64,000 bases of DNA, taken from Eledone cirrhosa. Its lineage: Eukaryota. The notes under the pieces were generated by a model that was not told the origin of the DNA, did not search any database, and worked only from the letters and a program-made list of their open reading frames with translations. The stretch's first letter is position 1. Each line of letters starts with the position of its first letter. The stretch is from NCBI GenBank assembly GCA_964016885.1, contig OZ024741.1, positions 167,214,001 to 167,278,000 of the forward strand, in the 5' to 3' direction. Positions 611-63,019 of this stretch are shown in pieces. The position numbers and the translations under genes are program-made.

Positions 611-2615
611 CATCATCATCATCATCATCAACGTTTAACGTCCGTGTTCCACGCTTGCATGGGTTTGGACGGGGGTAGTCCCACTTGAGGCAAGAGTGAT
701 TGTCTTGCTCGCATAGGACTGTCTGGCAGGTTTTCTACAGTTGGATGCCCTTCCTAACACCAACCACATTTACAGTGTGGGTCTGGGAGGTTTTTACCGT
801 GTTGCCTACACGGCCACATTACAGCGTGGACTGTGTGTTTTTTTGTCGTGACACCTACACGATCTCATTTGTTTCGGCCTCGAAGGCGCGGCACCAACAT
901 AACTTTACATAGAACGGGGTGGTGTGGATCGGGTGGGGGTGGGGGTGGTGGGACGGGGTGTATTTTGTTAGAGATGCCTACTGGCTGGAGTAGGTTTTAC
1001 TATATATTTAGGTAAGGCGGGTCTTCTCTGTTACTGAGTACCGCCAAAGGTCTCGGTCCAGTGACATTGTCTTGGAGAGGTGTAAGTGTGTGATGTCGGA
1101 GTTTATCAGCTCGTCCCAGGTTTTTCTAGGTCTGCCTATTCCGTGACTACCGTCTATCTTTATTGCCCTGCACTTTGTTATACAGCTATCGACTTTCATG
1201 CGCATCACGTGTCCATACCAACGTAGCCTTCTCTCGAGTAAACAACATCTGATCCCTCTTATCTCTAATTTTTTCCTTAGTTCGTTTATGCTTTGCCGTT
1301 CACGTATATTACTGTTACACATCCAGCGGAGCATGCAAGCTTCGTTCCTCTCTAGTCTGCGTATATCCTCTGCACACAATGCCCAGGTCTCACTGCCATG
1401 CAGCATTGCTGTTCGTATGCAGGCATCGTACAACCTGCCTTTCATTTTTAGTGAGAACCCTTTAGCAGCTAATAGTGGTATAAGCTCTCTGAACTTTTTC
1501 CAACCAGTTCTGACTCTAGCTACAGTACTTTCAGAGCACCCTCCACCACTGCTGATTTTATCGCCCAGGTAACGGAAGCTGTCCACTATTTCTATAGAAC
1601 CCTCTGCGCAATTGAAAGAGCTAGTAGTTTGTGGGCACTTGCTGCTACTTATTGCACCAGAGCACCGGCCACATGTAAAATCTATGTTCTTAGTTAGCTT
1701 ACCTGTGATCCCACTACATCTTTTATGCACCCATACTTTGCATTTAGGACATAAAATGGAGTTTCTACCTACGCCTTTCCTACACACCGAGCACGACCAT
1801 TTCCCAGAAGGGACCGCCGCCTTGTTTTCTTTCCTACAAACTAGTACTTTGGTCTTAGCCAGGTTAATTTTAAGTCCTTTTGACTCTAGGCCGTGCTTCC
1901 ATGTTTGGAATTTCTTCTCTAGCTCGGCCATTGATTCCGCTATGTGTGTCAGGTCGTCTGCGTATAGGAGTTCCCATGGGCAGCCTGTCTTGAACTCCTC
2001 TGTTATAGCCTGAAGGGCAATAATAAATAGTAGTGGACTGAGAACAGAGCCCTGATGGACGCCAACTTTTACGCTAAACTCTTCACTATATTCGTTGTTA
2101 ATTCTAACCTTGCTGACTGTTTCTTTATACATGGCTTGTATAGCCCTCACAAGCCATTCGTCAACGCCTAGTTTTCTAAGAGCCCACCAGATAATGGAGC
2201 GGGGGACTCTGTCGAAGGCTTTCTCCAAGTCGACAAAAGCTAAGTAGAGGGGTTTACCTTTAGCTAGGTACTTCTCCTGTAGTTGTCGTACTATGAAAAG
2301 AGCGTCTGTGGTACTTTTGCCTGACACAAACCCGAACTGCATTTCATCTAGGTCAATTCTCTCTCTGATTAGTTGCGCTATTACTCTTTCCGTGACCTTC
2401 ATGACCTGGTCGATTAATTTAATGCCTCTATAGTTACTCCTATCTAGGGCGTCTCCTTTACCCTTATAACAGTTAACGATGATGCTGCTATGCCAGTCCT
2501 TCGGAACAACCCCATTCTGTACGACTTGGTTAACTATGCGGGTGACCATGGTGTGTCCCACCGTGCCAGATGCCTTCAGCATCTCAGCAACTATTTCCGA
2601 AGGCCCAGCCGCCTT
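611..2615 (-). mobile_element. 5'-truncated RTE-clade LINE (family A), young copy
   Basis: RT ORF on the minus strand, 3' UTR and (GAT)n tail at 611-630; near-identical 3' ends at 19210-20003 and 61878-62529. Confidence 0.95.
1008..2615 (-). CDS. Uninterrupted partial ORF of RTE LINE: reverse transcriptase with PHD-type zinc finger insert
   Basis: Motifs [68 protein letters not shown]; the N-terminal YIYI part of the ORF call is microsatellite. Confidence 0.92.
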
Positions 2616-3023
2616 ACATATACATATATATATATACATATATATATATACATATATATATATACATATATATATATACATATATATATATACATATACA
2701 TATACATATATATATATACATATATATATACATATATATATACATATATATATATACATATATATATATACATATATATATACATATATATATACATATA
2801 TATATACATATATACATATACATATATATATATACATATACATATATACATATACATATATATATATATATACATATATATATACATATATATATACATA
2901 TATACATATACATATATACATATACATATATACATATACATATATACATATATATATACATATATATATACATATATATATATACATATATATATATACA
3001 TATATATATATACATATATATAC

Positions 3024-3056
<33 letters not shown>

Positions 3057-3057
3057 C

Positions 3058-3090
<33 letters not shown>

Positions 3091-3091
3091 C

Positions 3092-3124
<33 letters not shown>

Positions 3125-3137
3125 CATATATATATAC

Positions 3138-3190
<53 letters not shown>

Positions 3191-4311: not shown

Positions 4312-4580
4312 TATATATATATATATACACATATATATATATATATATATACACATATATATATATATACACATATATATATATATACACATATATATAT
4401 ATATATATATACACATATATATATACACACACATATATATATACACATATATATATATATATATACACATATATATATATATATACACATATATATATAT
4501 ATATACACATATACACATATATATATACATATATATATATATATACACATACATATATATATACATATATATATATACAT
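3926..4580. repeat. Interrupted (TA)n microsatellite
   Basis: Direct inspection. Confidence 0.98.
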
Positions 4581-6952
4581 ATCTATCTATCTAAGGCGGG
4601 TAAAATTCCCGAGATCCATGGACGAGTTCTCTCCAGCGGTCTCTGTCCCTCATTATCGCTGCCATATCCTGCATCTCCAACAGACCAGTGTCTGTCCTTA
4701 GGGCATCAACATATGTTAACCTTGGTCTTCCTCCTCTAGTGTGTCCATGTAGGGGCTCCCAAAGGAGCACTGAGTGCAATGTCAACTCTGGATGTCAGTG
4801 AGCATGTCCAGCCAACCTCAGTCTCCTCTGTGTCACTTTTGAGCTGACTTTTGGGATGCTCCCATACAGCTCTGAGTTTTTCATCCTCAGTGTATACTGA
4901 TTAATGTTCAGAGCCATCCTCAGCATTCTCGTGTAACACCCATCCACCATCTGAGTGAGTCTCTTGGTCAGTGTCCAAGTCTCAGACCCATACAGCACAG
5001 ACTCCACTACAGCAATGAAGAGGCGGATTTTCAGGTCCGACTTCCACACCGATCTCAAGCTGTGACACGCCGCGCAGGCCTTGCTCTTCCTCTCAACCAC
5101 ATCATCCTCCGTATTCCCAATCTTTGCTCCCAAATACAGGAAGTCCTCAACCAATTCCAGCGGCTTCCCGCCTACATTAGTGATCCCCTCTGGCTTCTCA
5201 ACATTCTCTACCAGATATTTTGTTTTAGTCTCATTCAGTCTCAACCTCCCGCATCAAATCCTCTGCCTCCTTCACTGTATTTGTCACCAAAACTATGTCG
5301 TCGGCAAATTCAGCATCCGATACCTTTTTCGCCCCAACTCTCCTGCTCTGAGCCGATGCTACAGTAAAGCCAGTGTCCTGGTGTTTCTCCAGTGCAAGGC
5401 GCATACAATAGTCCACTACGATGATAAAAAGGTAGGGAGCCAATGTATCTCCTTGGAGCACTCCAGCCAGTATCTCAAAGAACTCTGTCATCCCATCAGG
5501 TGTAATGACTTGGGCTTTGGTGTTGGTGTAGAGCAGTGATATCAGGTCCACTATCCTCTTGGGGATTCCATAAGCCTGTAAGATCTTCATCAGGCAGTAA
5601 CGGTCCACAGAATCAAAGGCCTTCCTAAAGTCAATGAAAACCATGACCGCAGGAAGGCACTTTGCTCTAGCTCCCTCTAATATCCTCCACAGCATCAGGA
5701 TGTGACTGGTGGTTGATCTACCCTCTCTGAAGCCGTTCTGGTTGTCCCTGAGCTTCTTCTCCATCTCAGGCTGGATCCTGTTAAGAATCATCCTGTTGAG
5801 GGTCTTTGCCACAAGTGACGTCAGTGAGATCCCCCGGTAGTTGTTGGTGTTAGAGAGATCTCCCTTCTTTGGCACTGGGACGATGTTACTGATCCTCCAC
5901 TGATTCGGGGCAACTCCTTTATCCAGTGCCCCGTTACAGAACCCCAGGATGATATCATCAAAATCACACCTCTTCATCACCTCTGATGCCACTCCATCTT
6001 CTCCATGAGCCTTGCCCTCCTTGATCTTCTTCTTGGCTCTCTGAAGCTCCTCTCTGGTGAAGGGGCTCTGTCTCAACATCCAGTTCCTCAAACAGCCGCC
6101 TGATCTCCCCAGTGCTCTGGGCTGTGGAGGGTGGCTCTCCTAGTAGGGTCCTAAAATGGTCTAGCCATTTCCTCTTCCTATCCTCGGGCCCCGTTCCCTG
6201 GATCTGACTTGAACACCTTTTCTTCCTCCCTGTGATCTCGTTGATGATCATCCAGCTCTCCTTACATCCAGATCTGTCAACCGCTCTCTCCACACTTCTG
6301 ATCTTCTCTATCAGTGCCTCCTCTCTGACCTCAGTGTAAGCGGTACAGAGCTCTTCCCTCATCACCTCCACAGTCTCCATCCTCTCCTCCGTAGGATCAG
6401 CATAGAATTGGTCCCTGGCAGCTTTCAGGTGTTCTCTGGCTGCACACACTTTTGGGTTTGCAGAGCTGACGCGCTTCCCTTTGTTCTTTTTCCTCGGCAC
6501 CAGGGTTTCACTTGCTTTCGCCACTGCATTGGTGAAGTGCCCGTACCTCCTCGTCACACTCTCCTCAGTCCATCCAATCTCTCTCTCCTCTGACTCTCCA
6601 CACAGAGCACTAAACCTGTTTCTCACTTCCACTGTGAACCTCTCCTGTAGCCCATCATCTTCCTTGAAAGCTCCCCAGTCATAGATTGTTCTCCGGGTCT
6701 GAGCCTTGCTCTTTCTTAAGCTCACGCGGACCTCACTCATAACAAGCCGGTGGTCACTACCCAGTGTACTGAAATAGCTGTATGGTTCCGTGTTCAGAAC
6801 ACTATTCCGCCACTTTTTCCTCACCAGAATGAAATCAATTTGGGACTTGGACAGGTGCATATCTGAGATGTAGGTCCACATCTTCCCCAGATTCTTCCTA
6901 AACCTTAGGTTGGTCGCCATCAAGTTCGCCTCCAGCAGGGTGTCTCTCAGTA

Positions 6953-6953
<1 letters not shown>
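4581..6953 (-). mobile_element. RTE-group (RTE/RTEX-like) LINE family B, frameshifted EN-RT ORF with (TAGA)n tail
   Basis: APE C-terminus QIDFIL...SDHRLV; RT motifs NYRGISL, QNGFR, FIDFRKAFDSV, GVLQGDTLAPYLF, FADD, YGSETW; split over ORFs 5964, 5231, 4795 and 4591. Confidence 0.93.
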
Positions 6954-6987
<34 letters not shown>

Positions 6988-19209: not shown

Positions 19210-20003
19210 TATCATCATCATCATCATCGTTTAACGTCCATATTCCACGCTTGCATGGGTTTGGACGGGAGTTTTCCCACTTGAGGCAAGAGTGGTTGTC
19301 TTGCTCGTATAGGATTGTCTGGCGGGTTTTCTACGGCTGGATGCCCTTCCTAACACCAACCACATTACAGCGTGGACTGTGTGTTTTTTTGTCGTGACAC
19401 CTACACGACCTCATTTATTTTGGGCTGGATATTGTGGTACCAACATAACTTTACATTGAAAGGGGTGGTGTGGATGGGGTAGGGGTAGTGGGACAGGGGT
19501 GTATTTTGTTAGAGGTGCCTACTGACTGTAGTAGGTTTCACTTTGTACTTAGGTAAGGCGGGTCTTCTCTATTGTGTAGCGCCAAAGATCTCGGTCCAGT
19601 GACATTGTCTTGGAGAGGTGTATGTGTGTGAGGTCGGAATTTATCAAGTCGTCCCAGGTTTTTCTGGGTCTGCCTACTCCGTGGCTAACGTCTATTTTTA
19701 TTGCCCTGCACTTTTTTATACAGCTGTCGTCTTTCATGCGCATCACGTGACCATACCAACGTAGCCTTCTCTCGAGTAAACAACATCTGATCCCTCTTAT
19801 TTTTAATTTTTCCCTTAGTTCGTTTCTGCTTTGCCGTTCACGTATATTACTATTACACATCCAGCGGAGCATGCAAGCTTCGTTCCTTTCCAGTCTGTGT
19901 ATATCCTCTGCACACAATGCCCAGGTCTCACTGCCATGCAACATTGATGTTCGTATGCAGGTATCATACAGCCTGCCTTTCATTTTTAGAGAGAACCCTT
20001 TAG
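19210..20003 (-). mobile_element. RTE family A 3' end
   Basis: ORF 19549-19983 matches the C-terminus of ORF 1008; (GAT)n tail. Confidence 0.95.
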
Positions 20004-27574: not shown

Positions 27575-28580
27575 AATCATTTATCGTCTATTTTCCATGC
27601 TAACAGTGTGTGCTGGGTGCTTTTTGTCATGACACCTACATGACCACTTTAAGGTGTGGACTGGGTGCCTTTTATCATGATACCATAACGACCACTTTAT
27701 AGTGTGGGCTGGGCGCTTTTTGTTGTGGCACCAAAATGACCACTTTACAGTGTTCACTGAGGACTGCAACAGAGGTGTAAAGGCCTGGGAGAAGGGTGGG
27801 ATGATTAGGATGTGGGTGAAGTGTTAGGGTGCGGGAGTTGTATGGAACAAGGGAGGATAGGTGTTAAGTGGTGCATACTAGATGTATGCTTCAACCCATG
27901 CACATGTGAAGGCGCGTCTTCTGTATTACAGTATCACGCCAAAGATCTTGATCCTGTGTCATCGCCTTTAAGAGGTGCTTTTGTGCAAGGTCAGCTTTTA
28001 TCACCTCATCCCACTTCTTCCTAGGTCTTCTTACTCCATAGCTTACATCAACTTTGATCGCCCTGCAACTTTATATACAGTTGTCATCCTTCATACACAT
28101 CACATGGCCATACCAACACAATCAATAACCTGCCTATGACCCCACTACATCTTTTGTGTACCCAGAGCTTGCATTTGAGGCATAGGATGGAATTTCTACT
28201 GACTCCATTCTTGCACACTGAGCAAGGCCATTTGTCTGAAGGAATCTGGGCTCTGTTGTCTTTTCTACTTACTAGGAGTTTAGTCTTTGACAAGTTAACT
28301 TTAAGACCTATTGATTCTAGGCCAAACTTTCTGGTTTTGAATTTCTTCTTTATAGTTTCAGCTATAAGGGTTAAATCATCTGCATGCAGAAGTTCCCATA
28401 GGCAGCCAGTCCTAAACTCTTCTATTATAACCTGCTTGACAAGAATAAACAGGTTTGGGCTAAGGAGAGAGCCCTGATCGACACCAACCTGCAAGGTAAA
28501 TTTTTTACTGTAATCATTGCTAATTCTAACCTTGCTGACTGTTCCTCTATAAATGCCTTGTACTGCCTTCACAAGCCATT
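27575..28580 (-). mobile_element. Degenerate RTE family A copy
   Basis: ORF 28084-28572: GVDQGSLLSP, HADD and the PHD finger cysteines. Confidence 0.9.
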
Positions 28581-29211
28581 TATATATATATATGACGGTG
28601 CCCCAACATGACCTCAGACTGTCAGTTGGGATACTTAATAGAATAATATATATATATTGTTGTTGTTGTTACAACTCAATGTTATATAGGTTTAGTTGGG
28701 CTTCTATGAGATTGCATCTCATTCATACAAACTTTATATAATACACTAACACGAAACACATATATTATATTTATATATATGTAGATATAATCTTTGCTGA
28801 AAGGAGAAAAAAGGTACAAAGCAGACACCTGGTACATATGGAGTACACTCATAACAAAAGATAGAAAAAAGTAAAGAACACACAAGGAATAGCATGACAA
28901 AAAGCAAATGACTATTTCACTAAATGGCAATCACACAGTTTTTACTATAGTTACATATGTACTTACATATGTAAGCATATATGTCTATATATGTATAATT
29001 ACATAGATAAGTTAATATAGTTACATGTATAAACAAATAAGCAATAAATATACATGCATCATTAATTTAAAACTATTTAAACAACATTTGTGAGTTTTGT
29101 ATTTTATCATCCATATATTAACCCCTTCATTGCTATCTTTCTTATAAAAACAGTTTAGATTTTAAAATCCTTTTGAAAATAATCAAAAATTTGAAAAGGT
29201 TTAATAAAATA

Positions 29212-60213: not shown

Positions 60214-60282
60214 ATATATATATATATATATATATATACCATGTATCTCTCACACATATATATATATATATATATAATTCAA

Positions 60283-61328
60283 TAATGACTTGGGCTTTGG
60301 TGTTGGGGTAGAGCAGTGATATCAGGTCCACTATCTTCTTGGGGATTCCATAAGCCTGTAAGATCTTCATTAGGCAGTGATCTGATGGGATAACAGAGTT
60401 CTTTGAGATACTGGCTGGAGTGCTCCAGGAAGATACATTGGCTCCCTACCTCTTTATCATCGTGGTGGACTGTTGTGTGCGCCTTGCGCTGGGGAAACAC
60501 CAGCACTCTGGGTTTACTGTGGCACCGGCTCGGAGCAGGAGAGTTAGGGCGAAAAAGATGTCGGATGCTGAATTTGCCGACGATGTAGTTTTGGTGACAG
60601 GCAGGGGGTTTGATGCGGGGGGTTGAGACTGTGTCGGTGAGTGTGGGGCTGAGAATGAATGAGACTGGGGCAGGATGTCTGGTGGGGAGTGTTGAGAGGC
60701 CGGGGGAGGGGGATCGCTGATGTGGGCGGGAGGCCGCTAGAGTTGGTTGAGGACTTCCTATGTTTGGGAGCAGGGGTTGGGAGTGTGGGGGATGATGTGG
60801 TTGAGGCGAAGAGCGGGGCCTGGGCGGCGTGCCACAGCTTGGGATCGGTGTGGAAGTCGGACCTTCGTGGAGACCTGAGGGTCCGCCTCTTCATTGCTGT
60901 GGTGGAGTCTGTGCTGCTGTGCGGGTCTGGGGCTTGGACACTGACCGGAAGGCTCACTCGGATGGTGCATGGGTGCTGCACGGGGGTGCTGAGGATGGCT
61001 CTGACCATTGATCAGTATACACTGAGGATGAAAGGCTCGGAGCTGTATAGGAGCCTCCTGGGGGTCAGCTCAGAAGTGTCACAGAGGAGACTGGGGTTGG
61101 CTGGGCGTGCTTGCCGGCATCTAGAGTTGGCATTGCGCTCGGTGCTCCTGTGGGAGCCCCTGCGTGAAGCACAGGGGGAGGAGGACCAAGGTTGACGTAT
61201 GTGTGATGCCCTGGGGGCAGACACTGGTCTGTTGGAGACGCAGGACATGGCAGCGATGGTGGGGGGCAGGGACCGCTGGAGTGAACTCGTCCATGGATCT
61301 CGGGAATTTTACCCATCCTAGATAGATA
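60283..61328 (+). mobile_element. LINE family B 3' copy, 5'-inverted and A-to-G hypermutated
   Basis: Aligns to 4581-5598; (TAGA)n tail; TSD ATAATTCA(A/G)TAA. Confidence 0.95.
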
Positions 61329-61570
61329 ATTCAGTAAGCCGAACGAAGGATTAGTATTATTATTATTTATTTATATGATGGATTGGCTGTATCAGTAGAG
61401 AGTCGGACGCCATGCTTTGCAACATAGAGTTACGGCCCTTTACAGTATGAGTTCAAATCCCACCGAGGTTAACCTTGCCTTTCATCCTTACGGGGCGGGG
61501 TCGATAAAATAAAGTACCCAGATGTTATCATCTTACCAAAGAAAATAGTGAACAATTACACCATAACCTC

Positions 61571-61714: not shown

Positions 61715-61877
61715 CAAAGTTTGTTTTATAAATATTGACATAACCAGGAAGAAATTAACGGTTCAAGTTTTTCCTGTTATAAACATTTATATTTAGTTTT
61801 TCTGTTATAAACATTTATATTTGTTGAATTATCAACAAATTGAATATCCCTTTTGCTTATATATATATATATATATA

Positions 61878-62529
61878 GGGAAAAATTAGGAACAAGAGGG
61901 ATCAGATGTTGTTTACTCGAGAGAAGACTACGTTGGTATGGTCACGTGATGCGCATGAAAGATGACAGCTGTATAAAAAGGTGCAAGGCGATCAAAATAG
62001 ACGGGAGCCACGGAGTAGGCAGACCCAGAAAAACCTGGGATGACTTGATAAATTCCGACCTCACACACACACCTCTCCAAGACAATGTCACTGGACCGAG
62101 ATCTTTGGCGCTACACAGTAATACAGAAGACCTGCCTTGCCTAAGTACAAAGCAAAACCTACAGTCAGCAGGCACCTCTAACAAAAATACACCCCCGTCC
62201 CACTACCCCACACCATCCACACCACCCCTTTCAATGTAAAGTTATGTTGGTATCACAACATCCAGTCCGAAATAAATGAGGTCGTGTAGGTGTCACGACA
62301 AAAAAACACACAGTCCACGCTGTAATGTGGCCGTGTAGGCAACACGGTAAAAACCTCCCAGTTCCACACTGTAAATGTGGTTGGTGTTAGGAAGGGCATC
62401 CAGCCGTAGAAAACCCACCAGACAGTCTTATACGAGCAAGACAACCAATCTTGCCTCAAGTGGGAAAATTCCCGTCCAAACCCATGCAAGCGTGGAAGAT
62501 GGACGTTAAACGATGATGATGATGATGAT
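61878..62529 (+). mobile_element. RTE family A 3' end
   Basis: [21 protein letters not shown], 3' UTR and (GAT)n tail. Confidence 0.95.
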
Positions 62530-63019
62530 ATATATATATAAAACACAGGATTTATATTAACTTATAGATAGATGTGTTTGTGTGTTGAACCTGCTGGTAA
62601 TCTAGAAATAAGTCAAACTTAATATATATAATCTCAACACCCACATGTTCTATCCTATGTTTCTGTCAACACCTGTATATATATATATATAAACATTTCT
62701 TCCGATTTGAACTCAGACTGTAAAGGGACGTAACTATGCTAGAAAGCATGGTGTCTGACGCTCTACCGATTCTGCCAATCTACCAACCTATATATATATA
62801 TATATATATATTAATAATATGGACAAGGTATTAAATTTTCCTTATATCAATAAATGTAATGAAAATTTAACACCTCATCCATATCATTATTATTTCCATG
62901 GTCTGAGTTCAAATCCCGCCGAGGTTAACTGTGCCTTTTATCCTTACGGGGTCGATAAAATAAAGCACCAGTAATACACTGGGATAATTGCTGGCCTTGT
63001 GCCAAATGTAGAAATTACG

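Follow-up and report, generated by a model that had tools for sequence, protein, structure and literature searches.

A-to-G tracts in genomic LINE copies of Eledone cirrhosa: probable insertion of ADAR-edited RNA

A LINE insertion with a bounded A-to-G tract

The window analyzed here is a 64,000-nt stretch of the Eledone cirrhosa assembly (OZ024741.1, positions 167,214,001-167,278,000) within a 3.0-Gb genome. It contains a LINE copy with many A>G changes (the window copy) and an unedited sibling copy of the same LINE in the opposite orientation. The features are listed below; element coordinates follow the natural copy in L255.

60274..60285, plus strand: 5' target-site duplication (12 bp), ATAATTCAATAA; 11 of 12 letters equal the 3' copy
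60283..60378, minus strand: inverted 5' arm of the LINE copy, twin-priming type, unedited; element 2094-2189
60382-61328, plus strand: forward arm of the LINE copy; element 2193-3149
60382..60463, plus strand: start of the forward arm, unedited; element 2193-2274; A's changed 0/17
60464..61270, plus strand: tract of A>G hypermutation covering RT and C-terminal coding sequence; element 2275-3091
60584..60585, 61059-61060 and 61112-61113, plus strand: CA>TG doublets, read as new CpG that later decayed
61271..61328, plus strand: unedited 3' end, comprising the ORF end and a short TAGA-type tail; A's changed 0/14
61326..61337, plus strand: 3' target-site duplication, ATAATTCAGTAA; public contigs contain this junction with 0 differences
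4571..6954, minus strand: unedited sibling copy used for comparison; element 739-3162; RVT_1 E=3e-28

The window copy is a normal LINE insertion made by target-primed reverse transcription, with a target-site duplication, a tail, and 5' truncation and inversion. The inverted 5' arm and the duplication, features absent from the initial annotation of this DNA, overlap by 3 nt at the 5' side. The inverted arm is 97-99% identical to the best-matching family copies, with 0/30 of its LINE-sense A's changed, and the 3' tail resembles the tails of other family copies. The sibling copy had just 2 A>G changes. Elsewhere in the window, pieces of one or more further repeat families with an RT lie at 61877-62583, 561-1277, 19360-19815 and 28087-28668.

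The element is a 3,162-nt single-ORF LINE encoding an AP endonuclease and a reverse transcriptase (domains Exo_endo_phos_2 and RVT_1; natural copies L249 and L255), and its ORF stops about 20 nt before the tail. LINEs of the RTE clade have a single ORF with these two activities, a length of about 3.2 kb, a very short 3' end and a tandem tail, and by its architecture the element is RTE-like. Target-site duplications of 10-12 bp are given for the RTE clade in PMC4245944; those found here were 12 bp in the window copy and 11 bp in a second copy, L250, while no duplication could be delimited in the TA-rich flanks of seven other edited copies. A 22-nt motif of the element had 2,873 matching copies in the genome. 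The first 100 motif matches on contig C1 served as unselected copies (L123-L129, L152-L153 and L158-L248), a sample limited to copies long enough to reach the motif, which lies 660 nt from the 3' end, so that very short copies are missing.

Figures for base changes in the window copy were obtained against three references. The initial annotation had counted by eye roughly 80-90 A-to-G and few G-to-A changes relative to the sibling; the alignment of 60372-61336 gave 94 A>G, 10 G>A, 11 T>C and 7 C>T, with at most 7 of each transversion type. When the reference was the commonest letter per column among 59 other genomic copies, A>G had occurred at 92/254 A's and T>C at 3/214 T's (Fisher p=1e-24), and at 66 of 93 changed sites G was found in none of the 59. 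Relative to the 16 closest relatives, the tract at 60464-61270 carried A>G at 97/231 A's and T>C at 0/173 T's, together with 1 A>C and 1 A>T, while outside the tract 0/64 A's were changed. The APOBEC signature, sense G>A clusters in an LTR element, was not what we found: G>A had occurred at 3/249 G's of the tract, in a non-LTR element.

With common variants excluded, 87/215 A's were changed, about 40% of the A's across about 810 nt. In RNA order the changed A's numbered 0/30, 0/17, 87/215 and 0/14, a bounded cluster whose flanks were never entered, and the first and last A>G lay at 60464 and 61270, exactly the bounds proposed in the initial annotation. Since family relatives carry A at the changed sites, in both the 59-copy majority and the 16 closest relatives, G is the derived state, as had been claimed. 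The three protein changes attributed to the tract (YGSETW to CGSGAW, FLYLG to FLCLG and CYTRML to CCTGVL) were likewise confirmed.

The changed A's depended on the 5' neighbor. The share changed was 62% after T (21/34), 57% after A (29/51), 32% after C (17/53) and 22% after G (25/113; G vs the rest, p=2e-5), and 22-25% of GA sites were changed, depending on the count. The statement that most sites are TA or AA held narrowly (50/92), and the two features proposed as diagnostic, near-absence of T>C and depletion of G 5' of changed sites, were both observed. The 3' neighbor had no significant effect in the window copy (p=0.45).

Polymerase eta prefers WA sites, and this resembles the TA and AA preference seen here. 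One explanation is error-prone second-strand synthesis at insertion, in which a pol eta- or iota-like enzyme puts G opposite template T, or, in a variant, reverse transcriptase works under skewed dNTP pools. Clustered A:T mutagenesis by such enzymes includes substantial A>T and A>C, and error-prone polymerases are far less pure and dense than 40% A>G over 810 nt. An A>G:A>C:A>T ratio of 97:1:1 at this density is too pure for second-strand errors, which we consider unlikely to be the cause.

Public short-read contigs carried the G's exactly, as the initial annotation had anticipated for genomic reads. Contigs from two runs matched 60887-61244 (a stretch that includes 39 edited positions) and 60891-61238 with 0 differences at depths of 12.9 and 9.9, and the 3' junction contig had depths of 11.6 and 9, similar to the tract contigs and approximately single-copy. 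The two runs represent one sample of unrecorded library type, which may be the assembly's own. In RAD-seq data from two other individuals, 98% of the placed reads continued as other family copies and were uninformative for this locus. The window copy is unique, its closest other genomic matches being just 85-86% identical.

The copy also showed signs of age. Three CA>TG doublets were present, vs 0 in the 59 other copies (about 3,300 CA positions), and such doublets are expected if an edit created a CpG that later decayed to TG. The other private differences amounted to 24/1,011 (2.4%), the median for unselected copies being 1.6%, and the copy fell in the oldest subfamily; this load and subfamily point to an old inherited insertion. 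An artefact of an RNA-polished assembly or of base calling, a G-rich subfamily or a duplication could be imagined, particularly as the matching runs come from one sample of unrecorded library type. Yet the exact 358- and 348-nt contigs have uniform depth, the doublets require time in DNA, the next-best genomic match is just 85-86% identical, and independent copies carry differing tracts (see below), so that this is almost certainly not the explanation.

Other edited copies and the timing of the change

A uniform scan, requiring at least 7 changes of one type per 150 nt and at least 70% of all changes there, was applied to 242 distinct copies. It returned nine A>G tracts, all on the LINE sense strand, and 0 T>C, 0 G>A and 0 C>T tracts. 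By source, tracts were found in 7/112 copies from searches seeded with the window copy or motif variants, 1/30 from the sibling search and 1/100 unselected copies (95% interval 0.03-5.4%). Seven of the nine, the window copy included, thus came from searches seeded with the window copy or a G-bearing motif; free of this seeding bias, the strand claim rests on 2 A>G vs 0 other tracts among 130 copies and on the six T>C motif matches described below. Of the approximately 2,900 copies genome-wide, probably tens are edited.

Edited copies were found on chromosomes C1, C2, C4, C6 and C25, with differing subfamilies and tract ends and with tract lengths of 60-820 nt. A further copy, L251, looks edited (16 A>G and 0 T>C in 363 nt); it failed the strict scan and was kept out of the nine scan-positive copies. 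In the tracts of the nine copies other than the window copy (the eight remaining plus L251), T>C had occurred at 1/467 T's. The pooled 5' neighbors of these nine were A in 80/169 (47% changed), T in 25/66 (38%), C in 32/147 (22%) and G in 37/264 (14%; p=3e-10), and a 3' G was favored (75/226, p=0.009). ADAR favors G as the 3' neighbor, and the preference of the pooled copies, being ADAR-like, counts against second-strand errors. The neighbor preferences of ADAR given in PMC8586724 agree with the 5' G depletion and with the 3' G preference of the pooled copies. Hot sites of change lay at element 2492-2597 and 2853-3005.

Several candidates were rejected. L101, L257, L131, L068 and L046 had too few A>G changes to be called edited. 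L004/L136, flagged with 35 T>C, represented a CA/TA microsatellite mismatch, and many flagged secondary matches were TA repeats. None of six T>C motif matches examined held a pure tract. A count of 98 A>G vs 6 T>C at one TA step among the 2,873 motif matches was dropped as a measure of independent edits, because 18 of the 27 new loci tabulated have one young-subfamily haplotype in common.

The tract of L250 spans its inversion. The A's changed were 0/36 at element 2147-2287, 16/72 at 2288-2532, 11/22 at 2554-2637 and 0/59 at 2638-2882. In DNA order the unedited 0/36 stretch lies between two edited halves, while in RNA order the edited halves form one piece (p=6e-5), and the change lies on opposite genomic strands in the two arms. 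The simplest reading is that one edited RNA stretch was later cut in two by inversion. In this one copy, the continuity in RNA order places the change before reverse transcription, and the pattern counts against write-back from a host transcript and against DNA-level errors.

Second-strand errors do predict LINE-sense polarity in both arms of an inverted copy, as observed in L250. Such errors would, however, need to begin and cease, in both arms, at positions that neighbor each other only in RNA order. Adenine deamination of DNA would act on the new sense strand, through ADAR on a DNA/RNA hybrid or through another deaminase, and PMC12925331 describes ADARs editing the DNA strand of hybrids in model substrates. 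The hybrid formed at insertion contains the antisense cDNA, so that LINE-sense T>C would be expected, and none was seen; the RNA-order continuity in L250 would also be left unexplained. We therefore regard DNA deamination as very improbable.

Write-back in place supposes that the inserted copy and its sibling 53 kb away paired within a long host transcript and that the edits were transferred by RNA-templated repair. The sibling is oppositely oriented and does span all of the forward arm; the inverted arm, unable to pair with the sibling, is unedited. But within the forward arm, 82 nt at the start (0/17) and 58 nt at the end (0/14) are equally pairable and yet unedited. Host transcripts would affect either LINE strand, whereas T>C tracts were absent from all 242 copies, and in L250 the strand of change follows the arm. 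Write-back is accordingly very unlikely. Editing of the LINE RNA before its insertion, the reading already advanced in the initial annotation as retrotransposition of a hyper-edited transcript, is supported by the insertion hallmarks, the additional sense-strand copies and the continuity of the L250 tract.

The edits were blind to their coding effect (synonymous 69/214, non-synonymous 192/647, p=0.49). In the full-length copy L249, FADD in the RT active site had become FAGD, with loss of the catalytic Asp. These two results suggest that the RNA was edited after translation or was carried by the protein of another element; mobilization in trans is not required, since editing after translation fits equally well.

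A probable route from RNA editing to inherited DNA

We conclude that the LINE RNA was most likely hyper-edited by ADAR while paired to a putative antisense partner and was then inserted in germline DNA. Sense RNA would pair with an antisense fragment, probably transcribed from one of the family's thousands of copies, and this fragment would set the ends of the tract. ADAR would deaminate about 15-45% of the A's to inosine in the paired stretch (about 810 nt in the window copy), and the element's reverse transcriptase would copy the edited RNA into DNA, reading inosine as G. Insertion would take place in the germline or early embryo. We infer the enzyme, the partner and this timing. Copies with heavy editing appear to be dead on arrival; those with light editing may survive and found subfamilies.

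A duplex partner was sought at several levels. Inside the element, no self-complementary match was found at E<1, and a natural copy of the tract region folded no better than shuffles (z -1.23). No second family copy was present in the 9 kb around any of the eight other edited copies. Antisense fragments of limited length should be common, given approximately 2,900 copies in both orientations and inverted arms in 32/100.

Judged by sequence, the genome has ADAR-type deaminase loci: PF02137 (A_deamin) matched at four loci, with HAE, PCG and SCSDK motifs at the C6 locus. At that locus (L258-L259, C6:13.64 Mb) the domain lies in two long pieces inside one 700-aa open frame, unlike the many-exon A_deamin loci on C1 and C25, and it may be an intron-poor or a retro-derived ADAR-like gene.

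All four indels of the window copy (a 14-nt deletion, a 4-nt insertion and two single-base indels; at 60600, 60707, 61166 and 61203) lie inside the edited tract. In copy L062, a 1-nt insertion lies within a G run created by edits. Such indels possibly reflect RT slippage on inosine runs.

The nearest known systems differ in several respects. The passages of PMC4866542 and PMC2873906 drawn on here describe vertebrate LTR elements and ERVs that were DNA-edited by APOBEC and that, like the present copies, show strand-specific, clustered, context-dependent and inherited changes by a host deaminase, with mostly crippled products. There, C>U on the cDNA yields sense G>A in vertebrate LTR elements, whereas here sense A>G occurs in a non-LTR element and was apparently made on RNA. 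ADAR-hyperedited RAV-1 and ALV (Felder 1994; Hajjar and Linial 1995, as cited in PMC8586724 and PMC12925331) resemble our copies in their bounded A>G changes at up to about half of the A's, passed through reverse transcription and attributed to ADAR. As summarized there, those were infectious retroviruses and single variants, one at a built-in inverted repeat; the present case concerns a non-LTR family in the germline, without an internal repeat, whose many inherited copies are independent and whose active lineage may also be affected.

At the RNA level, PMC9068888 reports widespread editing of repeats in coleoids, with repeat RNA as the main substrate, as here, and with transposon defense proposed as a role that it calls unexplored. 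ADAR1 restricts human L1 and binds the L1 particle, a restriction reported as editing-independent (PMC5224506; PMC12925331). In contrast to these accounts, as far as the cited sections go, the editing product here appears in the genome. An active octopus RTE is described in PMC9115989, whose consulted sections do not deal with edited genomic copies, and the consulted parts of PMC5974252, PMC7084138, PMC8192503 and 10.1101/2023.05.19.541456 contain no such case. Our search of openly accessible literature found no report of ADAR-type hyperedited germline LINE copies; an earlier description is possible.

The proposal that retrotransposition may write RNA edits into heritable DNA is old, and we found little direct evidence for it. 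The edited copies are a natural, countable case of RNA edits in inherited DNA, and the 5' inversions make it possible to test, from the copies themselves, whether RNA or DNA was the site of a change. If ADAR is the cause, edited RNA can be inserted, a heritable route leads from RNA editing into the genome, and the edited copies both record past ADAR activity and preference and measure how often editing cripples germline LINEs. The same scan can be applied to any animal genome; the published screen, as described in the parts of PMC4866542 used here, covered LTR elements with only a G>A filter and placed invertebrates at noise level.

A possible effect of editing on the active lineage

Subfamilies were compared among 99 unselected unedited copies (29 old, 27 middle and 31 young, with 12 unassigned or mixed copies left out). 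Of 35 subfamily-defining changes, 17 were A>G and 0 were T>C (576 A and 393 T sites, p=2e-4). A 5' G was present at 1/17 of these A>G changes (background 42%, p=0.002) and a 3' G at 12/17 (background 37%, p=0.009). Among the changes whose direction was fixed by two older groups, 9/19 were A>G (vs T>C, p=0.013; 5' G, p=0.086; 3' G, p=0.016). The A>G changes were mostly K>R, Q>R, I>V or silent, and each of the six silent ones has T or A as its 5' neighbor (chance 0.0016). Several points limit these values: the thresholds were set with the data in view, there was no outgroup, masters appear to have recombined, tolerance of K>R favors AAG sites, and a tree of 136 copies was too poorly resolved to root the subfamilies.

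Rare variants in the 100 unselected copies also showed an A>G excess (281/35,902 vs T>C 123/26,888). By age, the excess of private A>G variants was significant in the youngest third (p=0.008), with p=1 in the middle and p=0.17 in the oldest third, and in the youngest third it had no ADAR 5' context. This diffuse excess in the youngest unselected copies (A>G 30/13,046 vs T>C 8/9,660) speaks for second-strand errors. A singleton count (125 vs 85, p=0.44) is biased, as edited copies were included in the counts. These figures do not establish low-level editing spread over every copy.

ADAR could tentatively be viewed as a germline mutagen on two scales, a plausible reading that we hold with some reserve: besides producing dead copies, it would have supplied, through light editing, up to half of the substitutions that separate the subfamilies. 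If so, heavy editing leaves tens of dead copies, approximately 1-2% of insertions, RNA editing steers how the sequence of a live retrotransposon evolves, and a datable record of germline ADAR activity is preserved in the genome.

Several minor observations concern the family as a whole. At element 1214-3067 (L255 coordinates) the subfamily changes are mainly A>G in T/A-A-G context, and a two-step K>G change occurs at 2357-2358. The youngest subfamily (e.g. L032-L060) includes 22 near-identical copies whose upstream alleles are of the young type and whose alleles at 2876, 2996, 3019, 3060 and 3067 are of the old type, a mixture that suggests a recombinant master.

Twin-priming-type 5' inversions were present in 32 of the 100 unselected copies, and 36 had both orientations; in light of PMC4245944, this share is high for an element other than L1. 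L1 twin priming as described in PMC4245944 is similar in its inverted 5' arm, duplication and short junction loss or overlap; the inversions in the sections cited are almost only those of human L1 in human cells, whereas the present ones are in RTE-like copies. Six near-identical copies about 60-155 kb apart (L077-L082, C12:17.0-17.5 Mb) probably belong to one large tandemly duplicated region. L138 and L139 (C1:437.93 Mb), which share one orientation and are separated by about 3 kb, have identical variant patterns and represent a head-to-tail duplication or an assembly repeat.
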